Below are positions 3,101-62,060 of a stretch of 64,000 nucleotides of DNA, in pieces; position 1 is the stretch's first letter; each line of letters opens with the position of its first letter. The stretch spans positions 34,870,705 through 34,934,704 of the forward strand of contig NC_081380.1 in the NCBI RefSeq assembly GCF_030684315.1, read 5' to 3'. Source of the stretch: Stegostoma tigrinum. Lineage: Eukaryota. The notes below the pieces were generated by a model. That model ran no database searches. It was not told the origin of the DNA and saw only the letters and a list, made by a program, of their open reading frames with translations. Both the position numbers and the translations under genes were made by a program.

Positions 3101-6013
3101 TAACATGAATAGAGGAGGAATCAGAAGCTGATTCTACATCTGAATGAGGCTCCATTTATCTGTAGTTTGGTTAAATAAACTGCTGCCTGGGCAGACCTAA
3201 GGCTGATCTTGAGATTTAATTGAATCGCTGCTCCTAACAATTATTTAAGAACTAGTGTTGCTCCATTAATGAACAAAGTGGGCTGGGATTGAAATGTTTT
3301 CCTTTTTTAATGTAGATGTTTTTTGAACTTTTAATGACAGGGAGAGTTTAAGCCTATCTATCCAGTTTAATTCACACTGCAATTCTGCTGTGTGTTGTAG
3401 TCCTGGTATTAAAGAAGGTTCAGTAAAGTGTATTTCTGTTTCTTCTGCTTTAGAATTGGAGATCCAGGATATTGTCCCAATAAATGTAGAGAGCCGGGAA
3501 GATAGCTGGGCTGTGAAGATACTTAATCTCCTCTCAATGATCCAGTTCTTGCAAGCAGGTATGTTAAAGTATTGTCAGGTAGTTACCTTTAACAGTAGGA
3601 AGCTTCTTTCATCATTTTAAAAAAAAACCTCAAACATATTTTATACTACAAAGTAGCTTCCTGTAGCCAGGAAATCTGCTTCGGTGGCATTTTCCACAGC
3701 ATCATCCACTTTGCCTAATGTGCTGGAAAGGATTTTTTAAAAATTTGCCGCTTCAGAATATGACCAGCATCATAATGGTGAGATGTACCACCTATGCAAA
3801 CAGCTGAAAACTGTCTAGCTGAAAGATAATCAAGTTTGACTAATTGTCAACATAAGACTCAAATTTCTAACCATCAGCATGAGTAGTGAATGTCATTTGT
3901 GGCTGTCCATTCAACTGTACTGTAACAAAGTGATTTGGTTGTGTATTGAATAGGAGAGCGTGTCCGAGAGCTGCCAGTCTTTGGAGAGCTAGAGGGGATT
4001 TTTCTGGTTGGTGTTGTTGATGAGCTGTGCTATAATTCCAAAGGTGAACTGGAATTGTGTGAACTGAAAACTCGTGGTCAGCGAACATATCCCAGTGCAG
4101 CTCAAAGGAAGAGTCATCTGTTTCAAGTAAGTGGGTGCAGTAATTTGGAAAGAATCTGTTTTCATGGCTCACTTTAGTCGGTTATTTAAAACACCAACAA
4201 CGTCTTTTTGCATCATGCTTTACACCATTTTGGAACAACAATGACTGGTAATTGAATTGGTAAAGCGATATCCTAATTATGTTTTGTACCACTGCTTAGT
4301 AGGGTCATATCAACACAACACTTACTCTAACCTTACAGTTCAATATGTTCATGGAGTCTCTGCACATTAGTGCAACTTCAGAGTTGGGGTTGTGGAGATA
4401 CTTTCATGAACTGTCTGTTTGGCTTATTCGATAGCTGTCTCACCCATGGGTCAGAAAGTTTTAAGCCTCCCTTCAAGTCTCTAGTGAACAAACACGTCCA
4501 GTGCACTGAGATACTAGGAAGTGCAGATGCTGGAGAGTCCAAAATAACAAGGTGTAGAGCTGGATGAACACAGCCGGCCAAGCAGCATCTTAGGTGCAGG
4601 AAAGCTGACATTTTGGGCCTGGACCCATCATCCGATCAGAATATAGAAAATGTTGTTATATCCTTAAAAACAGTAAAGACAATATTTCCATACAATTTTT
4701 GTCTTGTAATCTCTAGCTACAAAATCTTGGTAGTCCACTGTACCGCTATGTGATTCAGTACAGTCTGATAAAGCAGCAGTCAGGATTTACAGGATTTCAT
4801 GTAGATTGAACTTAGGTTGGACTTAAAGACTTGATACGTAAATTCAACAATAATTGGCTGTTACATGTGTCTACACTATGCATATATTGGAAACACCGAA
4901 GGTTGGTTTCTCTCCAACTACAGAAATCAATTATTTCTATCATGTGCTGGTTTTTAACCCTGTAATTATAGTTACCGAATGTGATAGCTGCCTGATTCAA
5001 AATACTGCTTCATTTAGTCTCCCTGATCAATATTCCTCCTTCAACCAATTTCTCATTAATACTTGTGTGGCAGTCCTGCTGCACTGTCGCTGCTGTGGCT
5101 CCACACAGAACAGTTTTAGTGCTATTAAAAAGGGAGTTCTTCAATGAGAAAACCCACTGTTTTAAATGCCAGTATTTATTTCCTGGTGTTTGTTGTGTTT
5201 CGTGATCACGTTGGGTAAATTGAACATTATGTCACTACATTTCAATTGGGGAGCAGTTATAAATTACTGTCATGCCATTTAAGCATGGATTATAAACCTT
5301 TTTTTAAAAACAAGTGTGCTGCACAACCAGGAAACTAATGATGAGCTCTGCTGTGTGAAATGAATAGCAAAGGTATGTTGAAGTGAAATAAAGAACTGCA
5401 CATACTAGAGATCTGAAACAAAAAAACAGAAATTTGTGAAGAAACTCCATTCTAGTAGCATCTTGGAGATAGTAAGTCTATATTGGAGTGATGTTGGCTC
5501 TGTGTTATGATCATTTTCATAAAACTAAATCCTTTTTATTACCAGGTTAACATATACAAACTTCTCTTCGAGGCTATGATAAAAGGCAAACTGAACAAGG
5601 AAACCATCACTGACCACCTTCGCTTACGGACAGAGCAGCCCTTTAGTTCGGAGATTCTGATGCATGCTCAAAAGGTGGGATTTTCCATAAACACATTTGG
5701 TGACCTTCTGGATTTAATGTTGCTAAACCTGACGTATGCAGAGATCCCCAATATTGACACCATGAAGATAGAATACTGTTACCAAGCGGATGCCTCTCTA
5801 ATTGGAACAGAAGTGGTGTACTTTGAAGAGGAGTGGGTTAAAAGTGAGCTAAAGCATTATTGCTCCTTCTGGAAGGGCCAGAGGGAGGCCAAGGGTGTGG
5901 ATATTGAGGAGGCATGGAAATGTCGGTCTTGTGACTTTGCAGACATTTGTGAGTGGAGACATAGTAAAGCTGAAGAAGCTACGCAAAAGAATAGAGCAAA
6001 TAAAAGCAAATGA
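54..6013 (+). CDS. EXO5: Exonuclease V (5'-partial; coding exons 54-150, 1370-1626, 3454-3558, 3954-4126, 5546-6013)
   Basis: All introns are GT-AG with matching phases (2,1,1,0). The spliced protein has [57 protein letters not shown] and [15 protein letters not shown], i.e. a RecB-like nuclease core plus four Fe-S cysteines, matching the recalled human EXO5 sequence. Confidence 0.96.
430..1125 (+). mobile_element. CR1 LINE 3' fragment (decayed)
   Basis: [28 protein letters not shown], the CR1 ORF2 C-terminus. Confidence 0.85.
1370..1626 (+). CDS. EXO5: EXO5 exon (first Fe-S Cys, WCEQQ)
   Basis: Acceptor ccccag and donor gtaact; lies within ORF 1317-1652. Confidence 0.95.
3454..3558 (+). 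CDS. EXO5: EXO5 exon ([35 protein letters not shown])
   Basis: Acceptor ctttag and donor gtatgt. Confidence 0.95.
3954..4126 (+). CDS. EXO5: EXO5 catalytic exon ([58 protein letters not shown])
   Basis: Translated by hand (absent from the ORF track); acceptor aatag and donor gtaagt; carries the D...ELK nuclease motif. Confidence 0.95.
4507..4640 (-). mobile_element. Penelope pseudo-LTR fragment with degenerate hammerhead
   Basis: Matches 37064-37195. Confidence 0.8.
5546..6013 (+). CDS. EXO5: EXO5 last coding exon (CxxCxxxxxC Fe-S motif, stop TGA)
   Basis: Acceptor accag; lies within ORF 5507-6013. Confidence 0.96.
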   Translation, partial: VNIYKLLFEAMIKGKLNKETITDHLRLRTEQPFSSEILMHAQKVGFSINTFGDLLDLMLLNLTYAEIPNIDTMKIEYCYQADASLIGTEVVYFEEEWVKSELKHYCSFWKGQREAKGVDIEEAWKCRSCDFADICEWRHSKAEEATQKNRANKSK

Positions 6014-7129
6014 GGATCGCAATCAACATTTGGTTTTAAACCAGACCAACAGATTTGTCTTCTAACCAGAAGGAAGCCACCATCACGGTACTGCTGTAGG
6101 ATGTAAGCACAGTAATATCTGAATGCTCCTCGATTAATGCCAGCATACTGATTTCATTCTGTGACTTTGCTGTCCTGAACATAACTTTCCAAATATTGTC
6201 TGGGATATCCTGCTTGCTGCAGAGGGGATTTCCATTAACTCCTTTCTACTGCCTGACAGCAGTTTTCACTCTAATGTATTTTTGTGGCGAAGTGCCTTGT
6301 GATACTGTTAACTATTGGCATTAAGTTAGTGGCCTTTTGGGCAGATGTGATTTCCAACAGGCTAAGGTTAGTGTCTGTTTCAGCATTTGTTGATCTCTGC
6401 CTAAATGCTGCCACTTCTTTAAAAATGTAAACCTTGCCCATCATGTTTTTGTGTGCGAGTCTCCTGGCCTTAAATAGTTGATGTAAAAGTGAGGAAGAGG
6501 AAAACAGTTTCTGTTGTTCTAATCTGATAGGCCATGATTTTGAAGTATAGTGACTGTTGTAAAGTGGAGCTAGTAATTTTGTGTTGATGTACAGGCTGTA
6601 CAAGTGGTCATCATCACTAAGCTTGCCAAATTTCTCTTTTTCACATCTCTTTGCTGTCAGTTTTATACGGTACAACCTAAAAACATTTTATTGATCTTGC
6701 CCTCTCAATCCTTCTAATTCGGGAAACATGATTATAAACTGAGGAAGGAGTTTGAAAGAAAAAGTAATCACTTTTAGCTATCACTAATTTTCTGCCCTTC
6801 ATCTTCCCTATCTCCTTTTCCCCCTTACACCTCCCCTTTTGAAAGAACTAACTTCCTGGACGTACAAGCCTCCAGATGTCTCTAAATAGCCCTGATTCAC
6901 GGCTTTAGAGCAGGGGCATCACATACACTAAACTTATCGTCACCCAACATCTACATGCACCTAGCTAGGGTCGATAAACAGTGAATACTCCAGTAATTTT
7001 TGCATCTTCTCATTCCTCTTGCTTGAACTGTACTTTCCTTTCTCCTACTTTTGCTTGTGTGAGACCAGTCTGTTAATTGAAGACACATTGCGAATTGAAT
7101 TTGGAACTTTCTCGATGTGACTAGTTTGA

Positions 7130-8000
7130 TTCACCCGGTCCACGCTGACCATGTTTCCAAACTAAACTAGTCCCACTTGCTCATGCTTGGCCCATATTCC
7201 CCCCAAACCTTCCCTATTCATGTACTTATCCAAATGTCTTTTTAAATGTTGTAACTGTTGTACCTACATCCACCACTTCTGGTGGCAGTTCATTTTCACA
7301 CAAACCACTGAGTTTTAAAGAAAAAAGTTGCCATTATGTCCTTTTTCTTTCTAAAACTTTCTCCTCTCACCTTCAAAAACTAGCAGGCATCCCAACCAAC
7401 TAAGGAAAAGATCCTTGCTATTCCACCTCATTTATACCGGTCATGATTATATAAACCTCTAGAAGGTCACCCCCTCAACCTCCTATGCTCCAGTGCAAAA
7501 GACCGATGTTATTTTTTAATAACCCAATCTCTCCATTCCTGGCAACATCCTGGTCAATCTTTTCTGAACCCTCTCCAATTTAATAATGTCCTTCCAATAA
7601 GTGGGTGACTAGAACTGCACACAGTACTCCAGAAGAGGCATCCCCCCAGAGTCTTTTTCAACCACAACGTGACATCCCAACTCCTATACTCCAAGAAAAA
7701 CAGAAAGAACTGCAGATCCTGTAAATCAGGAACCAAAACAGAAGTTGCTGGAAAAGTTCAGCAGGTCTGGCAGCATCTATGAAGAAAAAGGAACTCCGTT
7801 CTGAGGAAGGGTCACCGGACCCGAAAGGTTAAATCTGATTTCTTTTTTTCCTTCAGATGCTGCCATACCTGCTGAGCTTTTCTAGCAACTTTGTTTTTGT
7901 TCCTATACTCAAAGAACCAAGTAATGAAACATGCTAAACACATCCTTAACTACCCTGTCTATCTGTGACACAAACTTCAAAGAACTATGTACCTGAACTC
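7130..8000 (-). mobile_element. CR1 LINE 3' fragment interrupted by a pseudo-LTR insertion
   Basis: EYRSWDV..EYCVQF-type sequence on the minus strand. Confidence 0.8.
7698..7900. mobile_element. Fold-back pseudo-LTR insertion with hammerhead core at 7801-7830 (+)
   Basis: Inverted arms; CTGAGGA-A-GGGTC-ACCG-GACCC-GAAA; TSD at 7682-7697 and 7901-7916. Confidence 0.85.
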
Positions 8001-8672
8001 CCTTGAAGGTAAAATGCTTCGGGATTATCTTGATATCATTAAATCTCTCAATCAATGTTGGATCATTGTGGAGTTGTATTCAGAAAGTCCATATTACAAG
8101 GGGTGAGACAATCCTTTCCAAGTAGGGCTCTGCCAGTTGTGGGGCTCCAGCATATGGTGCCATACCATGTGAATGTCTGTCATGCAAAAAACCTACTGAA
8201 AGTATTCTCTCTTTTTTTTTTGTAGGAGCAAGTCATCAGTCCAGACTTTTGGTTATAATTAATAACAAAGCCTGCAGGAATCTGAAGGGGAATAAAACTA
8301 GGGTGGTGGGGAAATGTTACTTTTGAAGTAAAGGTGATTCCATGAAATTAAGGCTAAGACTTCGTACTTAATCTTCAGGATGTTAGCATCTGCATGTTTA
8401 GCATGTGTTCATGCAAAATTCCTTTGTACAGTATTCAAAGCTAATTGTAATAGTTCATTTTTAATGGCACAAAAAGAATTTCATAGGAAAAGCTAAGCAG
8501 TGTTCCATAAGGTAATCACCGTCTTCTGTCTCTAAGAATTAAGCTACACTTACTAGTAAGCTAGATATTACAATTACTAAGTTCCAAAAACGTCCAGATT
8601 TTATAAGGACAGTTTTTGGTAAAGCAGAACTTATGGCCCTGGCTATAAAGTTCAATACACTACGTTTACACA

Positions 8673-9256
8673 TAGAAGTAAAGAACGATGGAAGCTGGAG
8701 TTCTGACATAAAAACAAAGTGCTGGAGAGAAGCAGCAGGTCTCGTAGCATCTGTGGAGAGAAAGAGACCGGAATTAATGTTTCAAGTCGAATAACTCTTC
8801 AGATCTAAAGATGGCTGGAAAATTATGGTTTTTATGCTTCAGACAATGAGAGGAGGAGCAAGTTGAACAGATGGTGAGGCTGCCTGGAGCAAAAGCCAAA
8901 AGGAGTGCTGATGGTAGAAGAGGAGAGCTGTAGATGTAGCATGTGTTTATGGAAGTTGTAAGTAGCAGAAAATAGGTCAGCTCTGCTACTAACCTCTACC
9001 ATTAACACCTGTTCTACATCTATATCTCTCCATTGCTATTAGTATCCTGTTGCCTTTTACTGTCGGCAGCCTCACCATCTGTTCAACTTTTTCCTCCTGC
9101 TGTTCCCTCTTTTTTTTTTGCGAACAGCAAAAAGGCTGTCATTTTCCAGCCCCCTTCAGTTCTAAAAAAATTCCATTGGACTTGAAACATCAATTCTGTT
9201 TCTCTTTCCACAGATGCTGCTGGATCTGCTGAGTTTCTTCACCATTGTATTATTTT
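8673..9256. mobile_element. Older fold-back pseudo-LTR-like insertion
   Basis: Inverted arms at about 8715-8825 and 9140-9245; candidate TSD at 8658-8672 and 9257-9271. Confidence 0.7.
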
Positions 9257-11329: not shown

Positions 11330-13540
11330 TCATGCAACATTGTGCTCGCGTTGTCAACAAAATCTTAGGGCTTTGAGTGACTTGGGCTATGGCAAGATGT
11401 GCAGTAGGATCAGTCCAGTGAGGCCCTTCTTGACACTGGGAGCAACTTGAGCCATATTTATGCTTTTTCAGAAGTGAGGTGATTAGATTCAAGCTCAGCA
11501 GCGGTGTGTTGCCAACTGACAGTGATTATTGCTTGTTAAACATTTGACAGTAACCCATTAATCAACTTTCTATCTCAACAAACTTGCCCAACAAGTCCAA
11601 TATGTGGAAAAGTCAACTCTGATACCAACGTGTACCTACTGGACATAGCTTGCTTTTGTTCCGAACAGCCTCCATGCTGTGCTGTCTGAGACAGAGGTAA
11701 AGTTCAAGACTAGGCCCTCATCTAAAGATGTTGGCATCTGCCAAACCATCATAGTACTTCTCCAGATACAGTGGAATACCTCAGATGAAATACTTTGTAA
11801 GGTATACTGACAACTAGCATTGAAAGGCCTCAGCAGTGATGCTTTGTGTCCAGGTACAAATACCCAGCTCATGGATTGAACCAGGCTACATCTCAGGCCT
11901 TCTTGCTGGCTCAGGATCTACATATAGGCTCACAGCATCCATGGCTTGCAATACGTTGCCATGTTGCGCCTGTTAGCATTTTGGAGCTTTGGCCAAGGCT
12001 GTTACCGCTGTTCTGAGCTGCTCTTTAGTGCAGACACTCAAAGATTGCTTGTCGTTAGGGACTCTTCTGGAAAGGGTGACAGCTTGACAAATGGCACATC
12101 CAAGCATCAATTTAACTCGGCAGGGGAGCTGCCTCAGCACAGTCTGGTGAGGTGTTCAGTGGTCAGTCCATGAGTGCCTGTACCAGCAGTCGGGGGAGCC
12201 CAGTATTGTCAGTCGGAAATGATCAGGGGTCTGGTCCGTCATGCCCAGAGACCACTCATTAAAGTTGGTTACAGCTCTGGGACAAAAATGGTCCTGGGTG
12301 TCCAACTTTCAGGATGGCTTTACAGGAGGGGACTTGGGTGGTAGTTGGGGGGGGGGGGGGTATCAGAAATACTTGGACATCTCAATAATGTGGAATTGAG
12401 CAGCAAGGCATTACAAAAGGCCAAAGGTGAGGATTAAGGGTAAACACAGTTCCTCCACTTTCAAGGGTCCTGTGCAAGCTCTACCAGTTGCATCCTCATC
12501 TATCCTATCTGCAATGATGGTCTGTCCTGAATGCAGTGTGAGCCGGAGTATTTGATGTGTGTCCACTGTAGATAGGGTGCTGGTTTATTGCAGACAGACA
12601 TTTCTTGAAGGCACTAGGTGGCACCTTAAAGTTAGTGCATCCCAAACCTGGGTGTGGATCAACAGCGCTGATATGTCCCTCACGAGCATGTGGAGCATGT
12701 GTCGACTTATGGTGATGTGCTCAGCCTCCGCTGCAGGGTATGCCACCCTGAACTGTTCTGAGATCTAAGAAATGGCCCTTCTATTCCCGTTTTAGGTTAT
12801 TTCCACCAGGGATTGTGGAATGGGAACAGTCTGAGGAGGAAGAAGAAGCTGTGTTGCCCATTGTCAGAGCTCAGCTGTGTCTGGTGCTTCGGGCCAAACA
12901 AAACATCATTCATACCCACTTCCAATGGATAAGAGGCAGTAGACAATTGTGGACTGCAAATTAATTTTTGGTCATGCAGCATTGCTGGGGTAAAATTCAA
13001 CCTCTATTGATTTTGTTTGTATTCCTGTTTGCTTTCTGTAAACGAAAGCTCATGTTTGTATTTGTCCACTTACTTCCCAAATCTGATTAAAAACCAAAAG
13101 AACTGCAGATGCTGTAAATCGGGAACAAAAACAGTGACCCTTCCTCAGTCACTGGATCCAAAACGTTAACTCTGATCTTTTCTTCACAGTTGCTGCCAGA
13201 CCTGCTGAGCTTTTCCTGCAACTTTGTTTTTTGTTGCCAAATCTGCTGTTCCTGTACTGGCCAATGACAGGCTACGAGTCTATAGTGTGCTTTGGGAATA
13301 CTTCACATGTCCATAGCCTACATACCTCTGTACAGCTTCCAAGTATGCGGCCTGATGGTTAAACAGCAACTTAGGTGAAAGATGGGATTATATGTCCAAT
13401 GGAATGCCAGCCACATGCTGTGAGCAGTGTGGCATTTTTGGGGGTAGCTGTGCCATGATGTTGCTGCTAAGCGGGGCCATACTGGATTGCCAACACTTGT
13501 CTGGGTGCTCAGCAGCCTTTCAAAGGTAGCACAGGTGCAA
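11330..13540 (-). mobile_element. Highly decayed LINE, possibly L1/Tx1 clade
   Basis: ORF 11636-11872 (SISSEVFHCIWRS..SLDEG) resembles the post-RT 'IFxFIW..SLDKGG' region of Tx1-like ORF2; weak evidence. Confidence 0.35.
13086..13236. mobile_element. Pseudo-LTR fold-back fragment
   Basis: Same family as the 7698 insertion; TSD CCAAATCTG at 13077 and 13237. Confidence 0.75.
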
Positions 13541-14434: not shown

Positions 14435-15290
14435 GACCATAAAAAATAGGAACAGCAGCATGCTGGTCAGTCCCCTCAAGCCTGTACTGCCATTCAAAAG
14501 GATCACGACTGATCTGACACTCATGTCCACCTTCCTGCCCTTTCCCCAAACTCTTGATCTGCTTACTGATCAAGAATCTATCTATCTCAGCCTTAAATAC
14601 ACAAAAAGACTCTGTCCCTACATTCTCTGTGGCAAGGAGTTCCAAAGGCTCTTGTGAATTCCTTCTCAATCTTAAATTGGTACCTCTTTATTCTGGTCCT
14701 ATGCCCTCTGATCCTACAGGGGAAGCATCCTCTCAGCATTTACCCTGTCAAGTCCCTCGAGAATCCTACGTGTTTCAATGAGATCACTTCTAGTGAGAAG
14801 AGTCCCAATCCGTTTAGCTTTTGCTTCTGAAAGGATTGTTGTATATCAAGGATTATCCTAGTGAACTTTCTCCAACTAACTCCAAGGAAATGATATCTTT
14901 CCTTAAATAACAGGGCCAAACTGCTCACTGTATCCCAGATAGGGTCTCAACAGTGCCTTGTACAGTTAGTAGTAAGACTTCCATACTCTTGTAATCCAGC
15001 CTGTTGAAATAAAAGCCAACATTCCATTCAGGTCTGAGGAAGGATCATCAGACCTGAAATGTTAACTCTGTTTTCTCCTTCACAGGTGCTGCCAGACCTG
15101 CTGAGCTTTTCCAACAACTTTGTTTTTGTTCCAACATTCCATGAGCCTGGTAGATTACTTACTGCACCTAGTTGTGTGTTTCGGCCACAATCCCAAATAC
15201 CCTTTATGGTGCAGCTTTCAGTCTTCATATCAGTAACACGCTTTTGTTCTCCTTCTTAAAATGAACACCTTGGCATTTTCCCACATTATG
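14435..15290 (-). mobile_element. CR1 LINE 3' fragment
   Basis: FKAEIDRFL and LGLFSLE motifs. Confidence 0.8.
15028..15130 (+). mobile_element. Pseudo-LTR fragment with degenerate hammerhead (CTGAGGA at 15034)
   Basis: Perfect TSD CCAACATTCCAT at 15016 and 15131, interrupting a CR1. Confidence 0.8.
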
Positions 15291-15793: not shown

Positions 15794-18700
15794 GTAAGAA
15801 CGTCGAACGCTTCCAGGATGAAAGAGGCAGGACGTGTTTTAAGTTTTGACATTGGTCATTTGACGATTGGAAAGCGGCGTTTCGGACGAAACTAAATCTT
15901 GTGGGATCCTTAAAGGTCAAGACCAGGTTAAAATGGCAGCGCAGCTGCTTATCTTTCGGTTCCTGGTGATAGCTGCAAATGGTCTTGGATATAATGAACA
16001 CATCAGTACGCGATGAACGTCATTGGCTCACTATTTCAATGACGGGAGAATAAACTGGCTTTTGGAACCCTTCCCCCTTCTTTTCCAATTGGGAGAAGGT
16101 TAAAAGCTTATGCATAACACGGACCGAGGGTTGGGCGAAACATTTTTCTGATTGCCATTGTGATTGTGAAGATTTCCTCTTTAGGTCAATTTAGCTCAGT
16201 TTAGTTGGACTATTCCCCTGAACTACAAGGCACTGCCACCACAATGCAGTGCTGAAGGAGCAAGTTCTTCAGGGTGGGAGTATGGTGATAGGTGAGCACA
16301 GGTAGGGAGTGGTCAGTGAGGTGGGAGTGGGGGATAGGTGCGAAAGAAGATGGACAAGTTGTATAAGGACAGAGAGGCCAGGATGACAGGTAGGGTTGGT
16401 CATGGAATGAGGCTGGGGTGGTGGTGGGAGATTTTGGAACTGCTAAAGTCCACATTTAGGCCATTGGGTTGTAGGGTCCCCAGGCGGAATATGAGGTGCT
16501 GCTGCTGCTTCAGTTTCCGGGTGGTGCCATTGTGACACTGGAGAAGGCCCAGGATGGACACGTCGCCCAGGGAATGGGAGGGAGAGTTGACCAGAAGGTG
16601 GTCTTGTTGTTTGTTGCGAACAAAGCGGTCTCTGAGCCTCCGCTTGGTCTCTCCGATGTAGAGGAGGCCACATCGGGAGCAGCAGATGCAGTAGACCACA
16701 GTGATGGATGTGCAGGTGAACCTCTGTCAAATGTGAAAGGTTTGTTTGGGGCCTTGAATGAAGGTAAAGGGGGAGGTGAGGGGGCAGGCGTAGCACTTCC
16801 TGTGGTTGCAGGGAAAGGTGCCATGGGTGGTGGGGCTAGTGGGGAGTGTGGAGCAGATGAGGGAGTCATGGAGAGAGCAGTCCCTACAAAAGAGAGGTGG
16901 GAGTGGGGAGGGAAATATATCTTTGGTTATGGGGTTGGATTGCAGGTGGCGGAAGTGGCGGAGAATGATACATTGGATATGGAGGTTAGTGGAGTGATAT
17001 GTGAGGACAAGGGGGATTCTGTCTTTGTTTTTGTTGGGGGGGCGGGGATGAGAGGACAGAGGTGCAAGAAATGTGGTCGAGAGCATTTTCAACCACTGAA
17101 GGGGAGAAGTTACGGTTCTTGAAATAAGATGACAAATGGGATGTTCGGGAGTGAAACACCCCCGTCGTGGGAGCAGGCAGAGGTGGAGGAATTGGGAATA
17201 GGGGATTGCATTCTTGCAGGAAGGTGGGTGAGAGGAGGCGCAGTCTAGGTAGTTGTGGGAGTCGGTGGGCTTGAGATAGACATTGGTTTCGAGGCAGTCA
17301 CCAGAGATGGAAACAGAGGGGTCTAGGAAGGAGAGGGAGGTATCAGAGATGGTCCAGGTGAACTTGAAGTTGGGGTGAAAGGTGTTCGTAAAGTGGATGA
17401 ACTGTTCAAGCCCCTGATGGGAGTACGAAGCATTGCTGACACAGTCATCGATGTAGCGGAGGAAGAGGTGGGGGATGGGACCAGTGTAGCTGCGGAAGAG
17501 GGCCTGTTCCACGTATCCTACAAAGAGGCAGGCGTAGCTTGGGCTCATGCTGGTACCCAGGGTCACCCCCCTTTGTAGGAAGTGGGAGTTCCCTATCTTC
17601 CCCAGACACACCCCTCTTCTCTATTTATCTTCGAGCTCCCTTGCCCGTTCCGCTTTTCTGAAGAAGGGTCCTAACCTGAAACAGCAACTTTCCTCTCATG
17701 TTGCCTGGCTTGCTGTGTGTGTTATCGCTGAAGGTTTAAGGTTTGGTAGCCATAGTCTTACCTTAGGCTGCTTTCTACTGGAGAGATAGAGACAGAGAGA
17801 GATAACTGGTGCTGGTTTAACCTCAGCTGAGTGTAGTGGTAGTCCTTCATAGTAATCTCAGCTGTTGCAGGAATTGAACCCACGCTATTGGTATCTCTTT
17901 GCAGCACAACTGGCAATAAAACCAACTGAACTCAATGCTGTTGTAATGCTTTTCATGATTGATGGAACTGTAAAGTCCTTGTGAGAGACAGCTAGATGTT
18001 AAAATGTCGCTACCTCTAGGCAACTAGAGATGGGCAATAAATGCTGATCTAATCAATGATGTCTCCATCCCATTAACAAAATAAAGTAAAGAAGGGGTTG
18101 GCTAGCTCACTTGGTTGAGTACAGAGTGACACCAATGATGCGGGTTCAGTTCCTACATCGGCCGAGATCAATGTGAGAGTCCTGCCTTCTCAACCTTAGC
18201 CCCTCACCTGAGCTGTGATGACCCTCCGGTTAAACCACCCATCAATCATGTCGCTATCTCATGGACAAGCAGCCCTATGATCATCTGGGACCGTGATGAC
18301 TTCACCTTATCTTCATTTTAAAGAAGAACAGAGAGTTCTTTGTTATCTGTGGAAGATTTCTGGCCACTGAGGGAATGCAACTGATTCCAAGGATGGCAGG
18401 ATTGACATTGGAGGGAGATTGGACTGGTTAGGACTACATTCACTGGAGTTTAGAAGAATGAGGGGGAGATCTGCTAGAAACCTATAAAATTTTAACAGGA
18501 TTGGACAGGGTTAATGCAGTAAGGATGTTCCTGATGACCAGGAAGTCAAGAGCCAGACATCTCAGTACAAGGGTACAGGGTAGATCATTTAGGATTAAGA
18601 TGATGAAAATTTCCTTCGCCCTGGGAGTGGTGAGCCTGTGGAACTATCTGCCTTAGAAAGCAGCTGAGGACAAAAATATTTGATCTTTTCAAGAAGGATG

Positions 18701-21700
18701 TAGACATAGTTCTTGGGGACATAAAAGAGTATGTGGAGAAAGCAGAACACTGTACTGAGATAACAAGGTGTGGAGCTGGATGAACACAGCAGGCTGAGCA
18801 GCATCAGAGGATCAGGAAAGCTGACATTTTGGGTCTAGACCCTTCTTCAGAAATGGGGGCGGGGAAAGGGGATTCTGAAATAAATAGGGAGAAAGGGGGA
18901 GTTAGATAGAAGATGGATAAAGGAGAACAGTGTACTGAGTTGGATCAGAAACAGAAGTTGGTGGAAAAGCTCAGCAGGTCTGGCAGCATCTGTGAAGAGG
19001 AAGAGTTACTGCACCCAAAATGTTAACTCTGATTTTTTTCTTCACAGATGTTGCAGTTGCTTTTCCAGCAACTTCTGTTTTTGTTCCTGATTTACAGCAT
19101 GTGCAATTCTTTCAGTATTTATGTACTAAGCTGGATGATCAGCTATGATCATACTGGATGGCGAAGCAGGCTCCCGAGACTAAATGGCCAAATCCTGCAC
19201 CTATTTTCTGTGTTTCTCTGTGTCGTATACCACAGCAAAGACATCAGCCAATATCACCCATTTGTGTAATTCATTACAGTGAAGTTATATGGCCTGTATT
19301 TGGCTCTGTGTTCGATCAACTTACATTTAATGTGTTAGCTAACTTATGACTAACTTACTCAGAGAAAGGCACTCCTTGAGTCGTTTATGGAAATCTAACG
19401 GTTTTATTTAGGAGCTTTCTGTGAATTTGTGGACTGATTGAGTGGACAGAGTGAAGTGCAGTCTGGTTGAAAGCCTTTGGAACATACAACTGGCTCCATA
19501 ACATGGAGACCTATTCATACTTAACTTCATATTAGGGCTGAGGCTAGTTTAACGGCATTCAGTTCAATAACATAACATCGTTGTGCATGTACACTTACAT
19601 TTAAGACTACTTTAATTTCGGGAGTCACAAACTAATCCATGTAAAATGAATTAGCTTCAGAATATAACCCACTAATTGAAAACTTTAGGAGCAGAACAAA
19701 ATCCTAGCTAATATTCTCAAGTTCTCCAATCTTTTTGTAATATGGAAAATTGACCTTGTCAAAAATGGACTAAAATGTTCAATTTGTAATTTACTATATG
19801 TTTTTGAACTTTAAACTCATGGGCCACTGTGACATTATATGATGGGAGTCAATGTTAAAAGATTCGTTTATTCATTGAGGTGCCTGGGTAATTTGTGGAG
19901 TGTGGTATGCATTTGGTATTAAAAGTTTTTTTTATTTAGGTGCTTAATGTATTTTTAAGGAATTGTGCAGGCACAGAATGGACGCAGGATTCCAGGCAGA
20001 AAATTGGACTGCACGTTTGTAGAGCAAAAACAAAATGAACAGGCTGATGTTTTTGGGCCAATCGTCATCAAAAGGAAGGCAACCTTACTGTTTGGTGATA
20101 TTGCTACAAATGACGAGGCCATTATTTTTAAAGTTCAAGGTAAGGATGAAGCATATCTTCAAATTAATTCTCTCAGGCAAGCCCCCTCTGCTGTACATAG
20201 AGTAAAACAATGTAGAAGTGCTTTAATGCTCCCAAAGTTACTTGTATTAAAGTCCAACATTGTTTATTTTGTTAGAGTAGCAGATCTCCTATGGCATTGC
20301 TCATAAGAATTCAGACAATCCACTGATATCTAAGAAGTAATAAATGCTGTAAAACACAAGAGATATAAATTGTAACACCCACCATTCTATTGGAAAATTA
20401 ATAAATTAAGTGCAATACTGGTTTTATATCCAGCCTGATTATTTTTTATTGAAGTCACTGGTGAGTAATATTGTTCAGAGATTTAAACAGATGTTCCATA
20501 TGATCCATTGGTTTCCCAGCCAGCAAGTTCAGTCAAAAACATCCTCAAAACAAATTATTCTCCAGATAAATATAGGTATGCATCTCTTTAATTGTACAAC
20601 TCTAACTGAATCCAGGGTTTGAAGCTGAGCAAGGAAACTCGTAGGCTGATTCATGGCCAGCTCAAGGCAACACTTTAAAAGGACCAGAACCACATCAGCC
20701 CTGGTCTTTATTAAATGGCTGAACAGGCTTGAAGTATCAGATAGCCAACTTCTGTTCCTAAATTTTATGTTTCTGTGTCCTGCAGCACAGTTTCGGTGAA
20801 TGACTTCAACCTAGGCTTCCTGGATCGAAGGCAGGGACAGTACCACTAATGATCAAGTCTATAGTTTGTTTTCAATTAAACCAGTTTTTCTAATCAACTG
20901 TTCAGAGTTGTTATTACACATCTCTTGAGCAGGTAGGACTTGAATCCAGGGACGCAACCACTGTACCGCAAGAGGGTCCCCTTGTGTGCAATCAAGTGAA
21001 GCCTCAATGAATGCCATTCACCTGCATATAATTAAACATAATTGACATACAATTAATATGGGCTTTAGTGGACACTACTTACCTGCCCTTTTGATCGTAA
21101 TCCAATAGAATATAAAATTGATGCAATCATTTAGGTCTCATTATCAACCATAGGTTATGCGACTTGCCATGTCTGAGTACACAGTGTGAAAGAATGAACA
21201 ATCTTGCACACCCCATTTCAATTTGGTGCAAATGGAGCTTAACATAGTGAAGCAATTCATTTACTGAGACTTACCAATAAAGTGAAAATATAAGGGTATA
21301 CCTGGGCAGATTGCTGTGCTTAAGTTGGCTTCTGCATTTCTTACATTACTCTAGGGATTATTTGTCAAATGTAATTCCTTGGCTGAAAAACTCTCTTGGA
21401 GATATTTTGAGCTTTGTAAAGGTGCTGAACAGACGTTTCATGAAAGACAAGGTGTTAACAAGAATCCATTACTGGAAAAAAACAATTCTGCACAACCTCT
21501 GAAATTATAACATGACAAGGCTAGCTTACTCTTTAAGAGTGACCTGTTTCGATCAAAAGTTAGGCTGCATTTTCAATGTTTAGTTTGAAAACATCTTTTG
21601 GGACAGACGAGTCTACAGGTTCTTCAGCTCCCTGAAGTCAGTCTATTAAATATATATATTCAAGATGTAAATTCAATTTTTCAGAAAAATTTATAGGATC

Positions 21701-24700
21701 TTACAATGTGGGAGGAACAGCAAACTGTGCTTCATTAATGTTGAGACCTCTCTCTATATGACTAATTTCCATCATTTCTAATAATTTGCCGTTACTTATT
21801 ATGTGTATCAATTTTTTTTAACAGAGACTTCATTAGATGTTTTCCAGTATGTGGACAAAAAACTGGACGCATTAGGATGTGAAATTAATAGGTATTCTAC
21901 TCATGGCATCCATATGCCCTGGCCGCACGAGGGTAAGGAGGCTATTGAAGACATATGGTTCACACTGACTTTAAAGCATTTAAGTACCAGGTTCACTGTA
22001 ACCGGCTTCATGAGGAAGATAGATGAGCCCAATAGCCAGGAAGTTGAGAAAAGTGAAGCAAAAACTGATGGTGAAGATTTACCCATTGGTGACACTGACA
22101 CTCTGTTTGTTCAAGGTAATGTTTTAATGTTGACAAGCTGAGCGCATGTTCAGAGTGAGTGCTGCAAGAATGTGTGTGAGAGATGTGGGCAATATTTGTT
22201 TTGCATAAGCATATTAAACCCTATCAACTCCAGTGATAATACAAGAAATGAAACATCCAAAGAAATATAAACAACTTATGTCTGCATATTTAAGATGCTG
22301 AACTTCGGAGAACGTACAGTTTCAAATAGTTTTGGCTGAGTTATTAGCAGTGATTTAACTTTTACAAAAATGGACAGTCATTGCCTGTTTGTTTTTATTT
22401 GTTAGTGACCTATATTGTACACACCAGGACCCCATTGATCAGAACTAAACTGAAGCAAGACCTCATTCTGGACTGTGGCTACAAAATTGATCACAGTACA
22501 GACTTTAACGTTGACTGGCGGTATCAGCACAAAGGGAGCAAGAAGAAATTGTTTTCCTACAATGGGCGACATCAGCGGATTGAATTCATTGAGACAGGAG
22601 TTGAATTATTCATGGACCAGATCAAAAAGGGAAATGCTTCACTCCGTTTAAGAAACATTGGTATTAAAGATGAGGGATCCTACCTGTGTTCTGTATATGT
22701 GCCTCCACTCTTTGGAACACACACCATTGAGGTCGAGATTATGGGTAAGATGTTGAGTCTAGTGAATTAATCAACATGGAAAGTTAACAGATTAATGGAA
22801 ATGTACTCATTCATTTGGTAACAAAACAACACAGAAGTCAGAAGAAGGTTGAAAGGATCATTTTCATCTTACTGCCTCCTGAATAAAGCTGAAGTTGTTG
22901 CTCCAGTGGTAGTGCCTGGATTAATTATTCCAACCTACAGCAAGGTGCATTTTAACATCATGCAGAAATGTGGAGTGCAAATTGTTCAGAATTGTGCCAG
23001 AAAAAACATCTTCACCCTGGTTGTCAGGGAGGTATCTTCTAATCAACCTAGTCAAGGGTGTTGTGACCTCCAGAGCAGATGGGAATTGAACTATTGTCTA
23101 GTTGAGAGGTAGCATAACAAGAGCATTGCCGTGATTATCAGTGATCAGAGTGATTGCAATCCTGCTCAGCTATGCACCAAGTTGTTTCTAGTTACTGTAG
23201 AGGGACTCAGTGGCTTGCTCCTGGTCTTATGTTTTCCTCATTAGAAGAGGAGTCGTACCAGACACACAGTGTTAACTCTGCTCCTCTCTCCACAGATGCT
23301 GAATTTCTCCAGCATTCTCTGTGTTTGGATATGGGCCTGGATTGTGATTAAGTAAGCCAAATATAGCGAGTAAACTTAAGGAAGCAACACAGGATTACCA
23401 TTGTCCCTGTCCTGTAAATGGAGCAAATGCCAAAGCTTCACAGATGAATGTTGCCCTGGTGCTACCATCATAGCTTTGCCTCCAAAACAAATTGTTTCAG
23501 CAACTTTTTGTTACAGTGTGTTAACTGTGTAATGTGATTGTACAGGAAATATTACTATCAAAAACTGTTGAAACTGCTGATTTTTAAAAAAATTCCTGGT
23601 TATTTGTCATGTTCCCAATGAAAAGGTCTCTTATTCTAATTTGATTCTAATTAAATGGATTGAAAGCTAAAAATCCTAAGTGTCAAAAAGCTCCTGTGAA
23701 TCTTGAAGGTGTGTTTGCTCGTTGTGAAGTGTTGTAATACAGCTGTTTGCTTATGTTGTAGAGTCGCCCATTGTCTCTGTGAACCCTGATTCGGTTTCCC
23801 TTATTGAAGGGGATGAACAGAAGCTGGTCTGTGATACAGGGCGGTATTATCCACTTGATGTAGCGGTGAAGTGGCTGCGGCAAAAGAGTGCGAGGCACAT
23901 GCTGCCCGTTTACATGACGAATGTTGTCTTCTCCCCCCACAAGCGGAACATGGATGGCACCTACAACTTGACCAGTTATTTCAGGTTCACAGCATCCCTC
24001 CAGGACAATGGTGTTATGTATGTATGTCGCGTTGAGCACGCCAGCTTAGAGAAACCAATCAAACAGTACATCCAAGTGAATGTCGAAGGTAAGCAATGAA
24101 CAGAGTCCTATGCTACTTGCTTTTAATTGTTTGTGGTATGCAATATGCAATACAATTTGATGCCAGAACTGTTCATGAATTTTATTTAACCTCTCATATT
24201 TATATGGAAGCTGCACCACTTCAGTGAAAACATCTATTGTGGGTTTTGAAACCAATCTGGTCTATTCATTTAAACTGATTAGCCTTCCCAAAGGTCCATC
24301 TTTTGTCAGTTTTCTAGCAGTCATATGCTCTTGTTTTCTCAAAATCTGCTTCAGTCAGCATAAAGGACCTAAGGGAAACTAGGGATTCTGCACACATTGA
24401 CACATTTCTCTCCAGTGGAATTTAGATGGTCATGGTTAGTTACCCTTCATAATTTCCAAACTTTTACAATACTTTGTATCTTATGCAGATATTGTGGAGA
24501 ATGTTAAACTGGTTGTAAGAAAAGTTCTTGCAATTACTTTTGTAACTTTTTGTTTGTACATTCAGTATATCATCACTCCATAGTTTATGCCTCATTTGCA
24601 TGAGCAGCAATTCCTTTAGCCTGCTTAGGTTTGGCATTATGGGATCCATTGTCTAAAATGGCTATTGTTAGTGTCACCATCCTCTGACAGGATTGGTCAG

Positions 24701-37030: not shown

Positions 37031-37063
37031 CTCCACCCTGCTCCTTGGCCAACATTCTGTCTC

Positions 37064-43105: not shown

Positions 43106-43694
43106 ATAGCTGGGATGTTAAAAATGAAATCCCTCAGCTAACACATGAGGCTAAGGAGAAACAATGCAAGACATTCTGTATTCTTTGGAATGTACAACCA
43201 ACACATAGACAGATCCATATGATCCAGCCTTTAGCGTCTGTGGCTGCTGGATTCAAAAATGCAGAGATTGGTGCAGAGCAGTGAGCGGACACTGCGTTAC
43301 CACCCCACACCAACATCTTTCTCACTCTCCCTCCAACCGCTAAAAGATAATGGTGGTAACAAGGTGTAGAGCTGGATGAACACAGCAGGCCAAGCAGCAT
43401 CTTCGGAGCAGGAACGCTGATGTTTCAGGCCTAGACCGGCCCTGTTTGCGGTTTGTAAAACAATCGGTAAACCTCCTTGTTGCAAAGAGAATTTTAAAGG
43501 AAGATTTCAACTCAGCAACAGAGGTTTAATAACCAATATTACAAAGAGAACTGCTTCATTCAGGGCCAAAACGTAAAACCTTATGCATTTCCTTATTTTC
43601 AAATCTGCATTGTTAACTTAGGTTAACTCTTCAAAGTTGTATTTTTCTGCATGTTTGGGGTTTGAGTGTGTCTTGGTGTGCACTAGGATCACGG

Positions 43695-46652: not shown

Positions 46653-46654
46653 TG

Positions 46655-54600: not shown

Positions 54601-55189
54601 TGGATCAGTGTTCCTATGTAGGCCAGAATAGGTAAGGAAGATAGACTTCCTTCCTAAATTAGTGGATCAGGTGAGTTTTTTTTGATGTTTTGTTATAGCT
54701 GCTGGGTCGCCATTACCAACTAGCTTTATATTCTAGATTGATTAATTTAGCAGCGATGGTGAGATTCTGAACCGATCTCTTCACCCTGGGTCACTGAATT
54801 ACTTACCCAGCAATATTAGCATTATGCCACCATTTCCCCACATTCATCAACTGCACAGATGGTCATGGATTTAGAACCTGAGCTATGAAGGCAGCTTATT
54901 GTCTTGCTCCGTTCCAGAGATAAAATTAGTCCTGAGGGAGCTAAAGGGCTTCAAGGAAACCAGAGCAGGAAGTTTAAGAGAAAGAGATGGTAAGCGGTTA
55001 GGTTAACGTTAATGATCTTGACAGATCTGGCAGCATCTTGGATGGAAACATAAAGTTTACATTTTGAGTCCAAACAGTTCCAGAGAAATGTCAGACCGGA
55101 CTTGAAATGTTAACCCTGTTTTTGTCTCCACAGATGCTGTCAGATCTCAAGTATCTCCAGCGTTTTTTGGTTCTACCACTAAATTGATC

Positions 55190-56640: not shown

Positions 56641-57719
56641 ATATTTCAAAAGGAATATGTTGATAGAACACACACATATCAGGAATGGAGATGAAGCAAA
56701 TACAAGGACTGACCTTACAAGTGCAAAATGTCGGGGGTGGGGGGCACTGACTCTGTTAGTGACCCTGCTGAAAACAATTGGAATAAAATTAACTCAGCTG
56801 CTGGTTAGCTTTTAAATGATTACTAACAATAGAAACATGAACCAGTTGTGAATTCAACAAAGTTAGATCACAACCACTGCTCCTCATTTCAAAATGCTGC
56901 AATACCTCTTTAGTGACCTCGTCCAGATAAAAAACCTCTCTTTTCTCACATGTTCCCTGGCAACCTGCTTTTCCTTTGTATATAATGAGCCAGTTAAATC
57001 ACTCCTGCTCGCCACAATGTTGCTGACCTTTCCTTTTCTTCCTCCCTTCCACCCACCCTTTTCCCCAGATTCTAAATCTGTAACTTCCTGCCAGCTCGAT
57101 GACAGAATGTAGATCTGAAATATTAACCCTGATTCTCCCCTCACAAATGCTCAAAGACCTGCTGAGTATTTCCACCATTTTCTGTTTTTGTTTCAGATTT
57201 TCAGTATCTGCAGGTTTGTATGTTGTCAGTAAGGGAGGCAGAGCACTACAGGATGTTCTAGATAGCCTGTGGGCTGGATGGAATATTGTATACTATATGG
57301 GCAGATACAATATGGGATTAATTGAACACTGTACTGATGCATGAAGGCTTAGAACCCAGCCTGCCTAGGAAGCTATTTGCTGAGAATGGGCTTACATCAC
57401 CAAAAGAAGGCCATTAACTACCAGCTTTTTGCCTGAGTAATTCAAACGTAATCCCAATACTGCTGTTTTCTCTGCCTCACCTGTTTATCTCACTACTTCT
57501 CTTCAAAGATTCCACGGTCGCTGTCTATGCCCAGTGTCTCCAACTACCCCCATTGAACCCTCTCAGAACAATGTAAACATAAATTCACTGAGCCTAGAAG
57601 CTGCTTAACGACTATGATCGTGACGAAGGTTATCGTGAGAAAATGCTTTAACTGAGAAGTTATTCAATGTGTCAAATTCACGACAAAGAAAGGGCCGGAC
57701 TTGGTGGCCCGGTACTTAC

Positions 57720-61698: not shown

Positions 61699-61859
61699 CT
61701 GTCGGAGAAAAATGCAAGTCAATATGTCAGTGCCGCAGCTTGAGAGCATTCTTCCTGTACATTTATGTTACGTTAGTGACACTGAAAATCTTGGTCTTAT
61801 CTCCTGGTGCAATGAAATCAATTCCTTATACACTCCAAACAAATGGTACATTCATAGCT

Positions 61860-62060
61860 AAAGAAGAAAACTGAAAGAACTGTGGATACTGGAAATCAGA
61901 AACAAAAGCAGAGATTGCTGGGAAAACTCAGCAGTTCGGCAGCATCTGTGGAGAGAAACCGGAGTTAATGTTTCGGGTCCAGCGACCTGTCTTCAGAACA
62001 GTTCTCCAGAACTGATTTCTCTTCACAGGTACCACCGGGCCTGCTGAGTTTTCCCCAGCA
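61860..62060. mobile_element. Fold-back pseudo-LTR insertion with hammerhead core on the minus strand (61964-61996)
   Basis: Minus strand reads GTT-CTGAAGA-C-AGGTC-GCTG-GACCC-GAAAC-ATT-AAC. Confidence 0.75.

Follow-up and report, generated by a model that had tools for sequence, protein, structure and literature searches.

The short repeated units scattered through the window, that is, the whole 64-kb stretch of DNA analyzed here, are of a known kind: pseudo-LTR (pLTR) ends of Penelope-like elements (PLEs) with the published metazoan minimal hammerhead (PMC4209133). We consider it probable that they are terminal pLTR pieces of Neptune-type PLEs, and that they were inserted by the element's own enzyme from RNA that had not been cut by the ribozyme.

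Distribution and parentage of the repeated units

A profile search with models made from the window copies recovered related units at all 20 positions listed by the sequence-only reading, the arm scoring 30–135 bits at every locus against a best score of 9.8 bits in the background (10 shuffled windows and the reversed window). It also found a copy absent from that list at 9157–9256 (50.6 bits), for a total of 21 loci, comprising 19 short loci and two arms inverted onto ORFs. The claim of high abundance was borne out, while the stated unit size of 100–600 bp was not, the 19 short loci spanning 81–222 bp (median 135). Seven of these short loci are inverted pairs and one more (35596) is a multi-piece insert, arrangements that the first reading did not mention. 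Its two families do exist, distinguished by C (family A, GUC) or U (family B, GUU) at the cleavage position, with 11 family B loci and 10 family A or A-like loci in the window. The loci and adjoining features are listed below (RT, reverse transcriptase). Separately, one host exon in the window is 100% identical to a zebra shark protein.

4506..4636, minus: family A solo arm with tail; core decayed; 5' end about 1 nt ahead of C3
5387..5467, minus: family B solo arm with tail; old; begins downstream of the hammerhead
7697..7900, unstranded: family B inverted pair; left arm tailed, right arm short with hammerhead (C3 7801); 16-bp target duplication (7682–7697 / 7901–7916)
8672..8805, minus: family B solo arm with tail; hammerhead degenerate (C3 8802)
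9157..9256, plus: family B solo short arm, decayed
13090..13232, unstranded: family B inverted insert in three pieces (tail and 5' half of the core, both antisense, then a short arm in sense orientation); target duplication of 9 bp
15028..15131, plus: family B solo short arm; core nucleotides kept, stems weakened; C3 15034, predicted cut after 15063; 12-bp target duplication sets the 5' end 6 nt before C3
16442..17593, minus: second Neptune-type ORF fragment (C-terminal half of RT, CX4CxxC linker, GIY-YIG), decayed and 5'-truncated; 3' UTR extends to ~16260
17608..17724, plus: A-like arm, inverted relative to ORF 16442–17593; C3 17658; cut site decayed; TATTTAT 36 nt upstream of C3
18757..18927, minus: family A solo short arm, extending 75 nt upstream of C3 (18851); TATTTAT 35 nt upstream of C3; 16–21-bp target duplication; located at the left target duplication of the neighboring insert 18946..19119
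18946..19119, unstranded: family B inverted pair; left arm short, starting at most 1 nt from the cut site, right arm tailed; 15-bp target duplication
23244..23328, plus: family B solo short arm, badly decayed; flanked by V-set and C1-set exons
24773..24862, minus: family A solo arm with tail; starts within the hammerhead
25585..25806, unstranded: family A inverted pair, hammerheads head to head (C3 25710 minus, 25719 plus); left arm tailed; 15-bp target duplication; predicted fold a single long hairpin, −167 kcal/mol
32231..32325, plus: family A solo short arm; best-kept hammerhead in the window; core nucleotides kept; C3 32234, predicted cut after 32261; stem III with one CpG change, stem I of 2 bp
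35596..35749, unstranded: family A insert in several pieces (short arm in antisense, short end in sense, ~40 bp of DNA unrelated to the unit, tail in antisense); target duplication of 17 bp, perfect
37063..37514, minus: inverted terminal arm of a long element (last ORF codons, 3' UTR, TATTTAT, hammerhead); C3 37191; TATTTAT 35 nt before C3; short end 37098–37100, tail end 37065
37552..39770, plus: Neptune-type ORF, decayed and 5'-truncated (RT, CX4CxxC linker at ~39385–39410, C-terminal GIY-YIG)
39771..40020, plus: 3' UTR of ORF 37552..39770, ending ~60–70 nt before the expected hammerhead start
42484..42641, unstranded: family A inverted pair; left arm short, right arm tailed; 5' half of core missing; 94% identical to the long element's arm; 12-bp target duplication
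43354..43437, minus: family A solo short arm; starts within stem II
55015..55176, unstranded: family B inverted pair, old; tail in neither arm
57094..57228, plus: family B solo arm with tail; a pyrimidine-rich run from ~57030 is of ambiguous membership in the insert
61862..62062, unstranded: family B inverted pair; left arm tailed with hammerhead (C3 61996), right arm starting exactly at the predicted cut

The units near 17590 and 37064 had been described as attached to full elements, but both adjoining ORFs are 5'-truncated and decayed. The ORF at 37552–39770, interrupted by stops and frameshifts, lacks ~160–180 N-terminal residues relative to RT and GIY-YIG proteins of 890–900 aa, which it matches at 43–48% (72–77% for Chiloscyllium punctatum proteins), and of the ORF at 16442–17593 just 400 C-terminal residues remain (40% to P0003 over 400 aa by tblastn). 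Both long loci align to their relatives over RT and endonuclease, and Pfam finds RVT_1 and GIY-YIG in those relatives; the window's own endonuclease piece, in which decay is too far advanced, had no Pfam match, and no solved structure resembling the RT piece was found. At both loci the arm with the hammerhead runs opposite to the ORF, and 37266–37506 is the inverse of 39758–39999 at 89% identity, comprising the last codons of the ORF and its 3' UTR. No full-length intact ORF in a tandem arrangement occurs among the window copies, a statement that concerns these copies rather than the family. Both ORFs have a C-terminal GIY-YIG and a CX4CxxC linker, the final Cys of which lies across a frameshift in the 37552 ORF, and the linker motif is also present in 50 of 57 long relatives. 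These features point to the Neptune-type partner proposed earlier, an assignment made from domain order and linker motif and not from a tree with named references. Nematis also has a CX2-5CxxC linker (PMC8557442), and Neptune and Poseidon are the only PLEs that bioRxiv 10.64898/2026.07.22.740005 reports from vertebrates.

Family A short copies share 86–94% identity with the arm that terminates the ORF-bearing element at 37063, which supports the Penelope pLTR origin through sequence shared with the end of an RT and GIY-YIG element. Family A is thus a stub of an autonomous family, and for this family the suggestion of a separate non-autonomous one is not supported. Read depth likewise climbs in steps between the N-terminal end of the ORF and the terminal unit: summed word depth in the hammerhead bin of run X1 is 2 times the value for the 3' UTR, 12 times that for an RT bin and 104 times that for the N-terminal bin (1.2, 4 and 33 times in run X6), figures that are summed contig depth rather than copy number and in which upstream subfamily divergence could cause part of the drop. 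No family B copy in the window is linked to an ORF, and at most one of the eight B pieces that reach the core extends more than 10 nt upstream (57094, ambiguous). Family B probably has a similar origin, from a related element that is absent from the window.

Several other readings of these sequences were set aside. A SINE reading was dropped because no tRNA was found, and a retrozyme reading because there is no head-to-tail tandem array of the unit, the pairs being inverted. The AG of the polypyrimidine-AG runs is not kept across subfamilies, so their reading as splice sites was rejected, and a sigma-70 promoter scan was disregarded as inapplicable to a vertebrate. A profile of the N-terminal 150 aa from 48 relatives, searched in six frames, found nothing, and the tail therefore cannot be called coding.

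A minimal hammerhead and its decay

Collectively, the copies appear to carry a minimal hammerhead of the published type, with a type I core (CUGANGA / GAAA / UH, an extra base after A9, and G10.1–C11.1). The motif written down from the sequence at first is a fair reconstruction across copies, although no single copy matches it as written; eight copies in the window match a relaxed core and none has the whole motif intact. In metagenome loci the same core closely follows the ends of RT-endonuclease ORFs, and a search of viral contigs with the core pattern gave 0 matches. Decay at CpG sites, also claimed earlier, is evident at the two motif CpGs, where 10 of 44 positions read CG, 31 read TG, CA or TA, and 3 are other. 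In stem III, ACGU is retained in 3 of 22 arms (42485R, 35598 and 13086R, none with an intact 5' half of the core in that arm), with CpG-type changes in 17 and other changes in 2. Five of 11 family A arms have the CA form of stem III, which could be a subfamily state rather than decay.

Among 15 aligned motifs the first pair of stem I forms in 14, the second in 13, the third in 8 and the fourth in 5, and family A has U-A and U-G only. The first two pairs change on both sides, the first being A-U in seven motifs and U-A in seven, a signal inflated by related rows; the alignment comprises two related groups, with outgroup rows selected through a pattern in which core and stem II are constant. The check with Rfam Hammerhead_1 that had been suggested is unusable here, since no hammerhead family appeared among 11 Rfam matches with E up to 10; the top matches were miRNA models on inverted pairs, far under their cut-offs.

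To call these units "ribozyme-tagged" overstates their function: no copy is wholly intact, the inverted pairs that were folded close up into long hairpins and most inserts cross the cut site. It is very unlikely that the stubs still function as ribozymes, cleaving host transcripts or giving rise to small or circular RNAs in the manner of retrozymes. Core nucleotides are present at 32234 and 15034, two arms start at the cut site, and run X5, whose kind is unrecorded and which is not taken as a sign of expression, is richer in terminal unit relative to ORF than the DNA runs. Yet beyond the lack of a whole motif and the 2-bp stem I of family A, the best copy scores −0.4 kcal/mol when folded as a hammerhead (stems I and II only) against −20.9 for a competing arm fold, long hairpins result for each of the three inverted pairs tried (−78 to −167 kcal/mol), and the units lack a tandem partner. 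Even in dimeric form, minimal hammerheads are reported to cleave only weakly (PMC4209133); one of nine dimers from frogs was active (bioRxiv 10.64898/2026.07.22.740005), and in the anole the ribozyme required the element's protein (PMC11167929). The ribozyme is likely under selection in master elements only, with the genomic stubs likely silent.

Insertion ends and the origin of short inserts

Arms with and without a tail occur in both families, and their two fixed 3' ends lie 33–35 nt apart genome-wide. Loose ends in run X1 fall at 37065 in 2157 contigs and at 37098–37100 in 4754 (flank agreement 0.37–0.40), and 37098 is the top loose end in related organism B too. Target duplications of 9–21 bp stand above background at 8 of 21 loci (control, 9 of 420 mismatched flank pairs), leaving 13 without a detectable duplication. 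The insert at 32231 sits in a LINE-like repeat, two other copies of which are too diverged for an empty-site reading. At the two-arm loci the 3' ends face outward in 9/9, with exactly one tail in seven, none in two and both in none; the one-tail rule is not significant (P ~0.06 for six of seven short pairs). The predicted cut site is crossed by 22 of 28 arms, two others beginning at most 1 nt from it and four further downstream, which suggests that the templates were likely uncut.

Drawing on PMC4209133, PMC11167929, PMC8557442 and PMC3846280, we propose that the endonuclease would nick both target strands ~9–20 bp apart, and that reverse transcription would begin inside the element RNA at either of two sites, with or without the tail. 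Two internal RT start sites have been demonstrated in vitro for the anole element PAc (PMC11167929). Priming of one strand would give a solo arm and priming of both an inverted pair, synthesis mostly stopping within or just ahead of the hammerhead. After insertion, methylation-driven CpG loss would strike G12 and the stem III palindrome. This mechanism leaves unexplained the ORF arms, which at both ORF loci end ahead of the hammerhead and tail, with a significant target duplication at neither.

Trimming of longer insertions by deletion or recombination, with inverted pairs arising from self-priming on an antisense template, is improbable. Both ideas are raised in PMC3846280, and the 13 loci lacking duplications, together with ORF arms that lost or never had their ends, would suit them. 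However, intact duplications directly flank five of seven short inverted pairs and two solos, so that these were inserted at their present size, and recombination between direct pLTRs would not yield inverted pairs with two different 3' ends. Self-priming may nonetheless have produced the inversions. We also think it rather unlikely that family B, possibly together with some of A, represents a genuine non-autonomous element, whose short master RNA would start at the hammerhead, have its own transcription and depend on Neptune proteins for copying in trans, the proposal of the sequence-only reading. Seven of eight core-reaching B pieces share no upstream sequence past ~6 nt, PLE derivatives of this type exist (MRC1, PMC8557442; retrozymes, bioRxiv 10.64898/2026.07.22.740005), and PMC3846280 reports that rotifer pLTR sequence sufficed for mobilization in trans. 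The absence of an ORF from all 11 B loci is unsurprising when only 2 of 10 A or A-like loci have one, and family A has similar short ends yet a long parent; the scattered 5' ends inside the unit and the lack of tandem arrays or a tRNA head also speak against a separate element.

What sets the 5' ends admits a further explanation, which we advance tentatively. Element RNA may start ~4–6 nt before C3, with a TATA-like box 35 nt upstream and an initiator overlapping stem I; reverse transcription from the internal sites, which lie close to the RNA 5' end, would then run off it, and many of the stubs would be complete copies of the first 100–140 nt rather than truncations at random points. Eleven of 29 pieces end 0–8 nt before C3, which amounts to ~13 ends per 100 nt at risk; the corresponding values are 1.7 within the hammerhead and 0.7 for everything downstream (Poisson P 4e-7, for an interval picked after the data had been viewed). 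TATTTAT lies 35, 35 and 36 nt before C3 in three far-reaching copies that are 69–80% alike, the duplication at 15028 places the 5' end at −6, and depth drops 5 to 12-fold from the hammerhead bin to the next upstream bin in 3/3 contig runs. Family B copies have a common (t)cagtt lead-in, which with C3 we take to read as an initiator consensus. A rotifer pLTR with a TATA box and initiator-like sequence is reported in PMC3846280. Set against this, 6 of the 11 ends are junctions within inverted inserts, where fold-back or microhomology could set them, four pieces extend beyond the proposed start, and RT stalling at a folded or protein-bound ribozyme would make a similar pile. In the commonest metagenome family, examined by eye, most matches run at least 60 nt upstream and no TATA box stands at the spacing; the internal promoter of D. 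virilis Penelope is TATA-less (PMC2377424). The idea is drawn from window copies and coarse depth bins. It is possible, if less than even, that shark genomes hold hundreds of thousands of such run-off Neptune stubs, each pair with a single tail, as the Penelope counterpart of strong-stop DNA; if so, they would be a very large in vivo record of PLE priming and of pLTR origin.

Relation to known Penelope-like systems

The PLE transposition cycle is poorly understood, with one in vitro study, and a genome with many small, duplication-flanked inserts permits the counting of RT starts, nick spacing and 5' end positions. It also carries a warning, as "ribozyme" counts in shark genomes would consist mostly of dead stubs, missed by Rfam. 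The minimal hammerheads of metazoan PLE pLTRs, as described in PMC4209133, have the same CUGANGAH, G-C closing stem II, GAAA and loopless palindrome; CGUC and CGUU endings are common in its Fig. S3, as here, and a 2-bp helix I has precedents in Culex, D. virilis and Oikopleura. Most motifs there are solos from truncated PLEs, some 100–700 bp apart on opposite strands, and no cartilaginous fish appears in part of its table and two of its three supplement files. With decayed copies counted, the 21 loci in these 64 kb would correspond to a density far above that implied by its 4,000 motifs in coelacanth and 9,000 in Xenopus, but that study counted intact motifs only, a rule that gives about 0–2 in the window.

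The Neptune clade, as described in PMC8557442 and PMC3846280, shares the order of RT, zinc-finger-like linker and C-terminal GIY-YIG. It likewise shows heavy 5' truncation and target duplications, with solo pLTRs, a copy inverted at the 5' end and a 30–40 bp tail, usually at one end. Unlike in those descriptions, most inserts here are only the terminal 80–220 bp, including ORF-less inverted pairs. PAc, a Poseidon element of the green anole studied in vitro (PMC11167929), has the same two internal start sites defining the tail, both target strands are nicked and extended, and hammerhead cleavage is dispensable, unprocessed RNA being the main template. It belongs to a different clade, and its ORF starts inside the hammerhead; a comparison of the pLTR here with the N-termini of relatives gave no match. 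Its start site shows no strand difference, whereas the pairs here tend, not significantly, to one tail. Non-LTR retrozymes (PMC7229834; bioRxiv 10.64898/2026.07.22.740005), reported in one chondrichthyan genome, are also non-coding, hammerhead-bearing and related to PLE pLTRs, but form head-to-tail tandems, often with canonical type I hammerheads, and are expressed as circles, whereas here the units lie scattered, either single or paired head to head, and their motifs are minimal and decayed. The motif, the architecture, the tail and the solos have each been published before; less familiar is the stopping of so many pieces just before the core, where a TATA-like box would place the transcription start.

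Units, parent element and genomic setting

All 20 positions at which the sequence-only reading had placed related units were recovered by self-comparison and by profile searches built from window copies, and a profile search added a unit at 9157-9256. The total of 21 loci comprises 19 short loci and two arms joined to ORF fragments. Every listed locus has an arm scoring at least 30 bits, against a best score of 9.8 bits in ten shuffled windows and the reversed window; seed copies match their own profile by construction, and the non-seed loci (5390, 17654, 23245, 24775, 35598, 55015 and 9157) score 30-67 bits. The short loci measure 81-222 bp, rather than the 100-600 bp first claimed, sum to 2,628 bp (4.1% of the window), and consist of 11 single arms, seven inverted pairs and one multi-piece insert (35596). 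The proposed division into two subfamilies by cleavage triplet was confirmed: ten loci, including the A-like 17608 arm, carry C at the cut (family A) and 11 carry U (family B). Downstream of the cut, copies differ from the column majority at 10% of positions in family A (70/688) and at 23% in family B (184/810), the latter inflated by alignment gaps.

In inverted orientation, the arm at 37063-37514 repeats the 3' end of the downstream ORF (37266-37506 against 39758-39999, 89%). This ORF (37552-39770) contains stops and frameshifts and aligns from about residue 170 to proteins of 890-900 aa with a reverse transcriptase (RT) and, at the C terminus, a GIY-YIG domain, while the ORF at 16442-17593 on the minus strand covers the last 400 residues only. 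Neither of the supposed full elements at 17590 and 37064 is thus full length. The suggestion of a Neptune-type partner fared better, given this alignment and a CX4CxxC linker in both ORFs; a linker motif of this type is carried by 50 of 57 long relatives, and PMC8557442 describes such a linker as marking Neptune and Nematis. Short family A copies match the 37063 arm at 86-94% identity in the closer subfamily and at about 74-82% in more distant ones, and are therefore ends of this autonomous family, not the separate non-autonomous family originally envisaged. None of the 11 family B loci in the window is joined to an ORF.

The window has a GC content of 42% and a CpG observed/expected ratio of 0.27; its DNA is vertebrate. 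The exon at 5546-6010 encodes 155 aa that are 100% identical to a Stegostoma tigrinum exonuclease V protein (other sharks, 83-89%). Units 4506 and 5387 lie antisense to this gene, and unit 23244 lies in sense orientation inside the V-set/C1-set gene. Further repeats include decayed LINE RT pieces and four copies of a SINE-like repeat of 270-320 bp. The features outside the units are:

5546-6013: host exon, the last coding exon of exonuclease V
22354-24099 (one listing gives 24096 as the end): V-set and C1-set exons, which we take to be tapasin-like in appearance
32857-32928 and 34179-34249: inverted repeat of 72 bp (94% identity, spacing 1.3 kb) with no relation to the hammerhead units
7139-7695, 28046-28704, 41445-42044, 45708-48119, 33495-33803, 60598-60864, 63101-63423: other repeat families (LINE RT pieces, SINE-like)

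The hammerhead motif and its decay

Across copies the motif runs from CUGANGA through a single additional base, stem II (GGG/CCC) and GAAA to CGU followed by C or U. Fig. S3 of PMC4209133 gives the minimal hammerhead consensus of metazoan Penelope-like elements (PLEs) as CUGANGAH G...C GAAAN palindrome NUH; CGUC and CGUU are frequent endings there, and helix I measures 2 bp in several species. Judged by sequence, the window motif is this published hammerhead. The core as previously written stands as a cross-copy reading, and eight copies fit a relaxed core, but the full motif occurs in no single copy, and the proposed Rfam check returned no hammerhead family matching the window at E up to 10. 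The decay of CpGs was borne out: the two CpGs of the motif lie at G12 and in the stem III palindrome, and CG is retained at 10 of 44 such positions, with TG, CA or TA at 31. The best kept copy, 32234, has the core nucleotides, but its stem III contains U-G and its stem I has 2 bp; folded as a hammerhead (stems I and II) it is predicted at -0.4 kcal/mol, compared with -20.9 for the arm's most stable fold. Three inverted pairs, when folded, gave predicted long hairpins (-78 to -167 kcal/mol). The stubs are likely inert. Both arms at 25585-25806 share an identical stem III change, representing either a subfamily state or one arm copied from the other.

The core pattern was matched 46 times across 44 metagenome loci, 18 of which also contain the C-terminal part of an RT-endonuclease ORF, and had no match in the viral contigs searched. 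Seven window motifs, chosen as best kept, were aligned with eight metagenome outgroup motifs that represent each sequence type once or twice. Among these 15 motifs, the first pair of stem I is A-U seven times and U-A seven times. The stem I covariation score is higher than in 499 of 500 shuffles and in every slid control, although the rows fall into two related groups, the outgroup core and stem II were set by the search pattern, and the score is not a probability. This covariation supports a stem I that is short but probably real. Arms at five metagenome loci (L033, L034, L044, L013 and L040) are inverted as in the shark copies, and a GCATC motif is found repeatedly close to the ends of several metagenome families.

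Insertion footprints, 5' ends and abundance

Of the 21 loci, eight lie between direct repeats (9-21 bp, score at least 9); the corresponding figures are 9 of 420 for mismatched flank pairs and 0.7% for random pairs. The repeats occur at five of seven short inverted pairs, two of 11 solos and the multi-piece locus, and at neither ORF locus. The 3' ends face outward in all nine two-arm loci, of which seven have one tail (the optional 33-35 nt beyond the short 3' end), two none and none both. A tail at a single end has been described previously (PMC8557442 and PMC3846280); here 5 of 11 solos have one, and the one-tail excess in pairs is not significant (P about 0.06). The predicted cut is crossed by 22 of 28 arms, a count that leaves out the core-only fragment at 13086; two arms start within 1 nt of the cut (18946 left, 61860 right) and four further down. 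Because so many arms cross it, templates were likely uncut or religated. This resembles the anole element, for which PMC11167929 reports that insertion did not need cleavage and that both strands were nicked, with extension starting at two internal sites.

The units show a common origin with the Neptune-type end, and also two 3' ends, target duplications, outward-facing inverted arms and decay. We hypothesize that staggered nicks would be made at the target, that priming would occur on one strand or both from two internal sites, that synthesis would end early, and that CpGs would be lost after methylation. Between 20 and 105 nt after the cut, a AGAUGCUG block and a GCUG-N8-CAGC hairpin are kept in both families, as is the block's complement CAGCAUCU in the tail, with differing spacers; taken together, they are a candidate for the structure behind the two RT start sites. 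At 18739-19136 a family B insert has a family A insert directly at its left target duplication, which suggests that the same target was used twice, and at 35596-35770 about 40 bp of unrelated DNA lies between element pieces within a perfect 17-bp duplication, pointing to DNA captured by template switching.

The 5' ends of 29 pieces, placed by local alignment and by eye, fall 0-8 nt before C3, the first core nucleotide, in 11 cases, inside the hammerhead in ten, further downstream in four and further upstream in four (including 57094, an ambiguous case scored as long). Ends are about eightfold more frequent at 0 to -8 than inside the hammerhead (P 4e-7; interval picked afterwards). TATTTAT stands 35-36 nt upstream of C3 in each of the three family A or A-like copies long enough to include it. 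The usual TATA spacing would place a start at about -5, and family B has an initiator-like lead-in before its core. Together these features suggest possible run-off at the 5' end of the RNA. However, six of these 11 ends lie at inner junctions within inverted inserts, four pieces extend beyond the proposed start, the main metagenome family has no such pile of ends, and the D. virilis Penelope promoter is TATA-less (PMC2377424); RT stalling at the folded ribozyme would give a similar pattern.

Beyond the window, four public runs were compared with 36900-40200 at 80% likeness. In run X1, from the same organism, 399,609 contig pieces match, and loose ends with unrelated flanks occur in at least 2157 contigs at 37065 and at least 1753, 1863 and 1138 at 37098, 37099 and 37100. 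These two 3' ends, 33-35 nt apart, differ by the Penelope tail size, and the top loose end in a related organism is also 37098 (640 contigs). Summed word depth, which is not copy number, rises 104-fold in X1 and 33-fold in run X6 from the N-terminal to the hammerhead bin; immediately upstream of the hammerhead it jumps 5 to 12-fold in X1, X5 and X6, a jump to which subfamily divergence may contribute. In bisulfite run X21, 144,706 of 12,836,656 reads (1.1%) touch this one element, mostly partially. If the window is typical, its 328 loci per Mb, extrapolated to about 3 Gb (near the whale shark genome size in 10.1101/443036), would give about a million loci.

The best-supported X1 joints link the 37065 tail end to the 37098-37108 short end on opposite strands (283 contigs, five positions); these tail-to-tail joints, unlike the head-to-head pairs of the window, may represent insertion at the ends of earlier copies. 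The ORF arm at 37552-40020 ends about 60-70 nt before the hammerhead, as the ORF arm at 16240-17593 likewise ends before hammerhead and tail, both of which sit on the short inverted arm in each case. There is also a contig joint from 40028 to the tail end at 37065, a hint that the 3' UTR may hold a favoured site for insertion or for starting.

Comparison with known systems

A literature search, mostly without subscription journals, found no paper devoted to shark PLE hammerheads. PLE expansion in whale shark introns is already in the literature, and bioRxiv 10.64898/2026.07.22.740005 reports retrozymes and PLEs in one chondrichthyan; its supplements may list these families. The units are not a retrozyme, which would form a tandem array, none being present in the window, nor a tRNA-derived SINE, as no tRNA was found. 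The original observation was partly confirmed, and the original interpretation of the units is partly supported. In their testable membership features, the units are those of an endonuclease-positive PLE with a minimal hammerhead, and their mode of working, as predicted from sequence, is alike.
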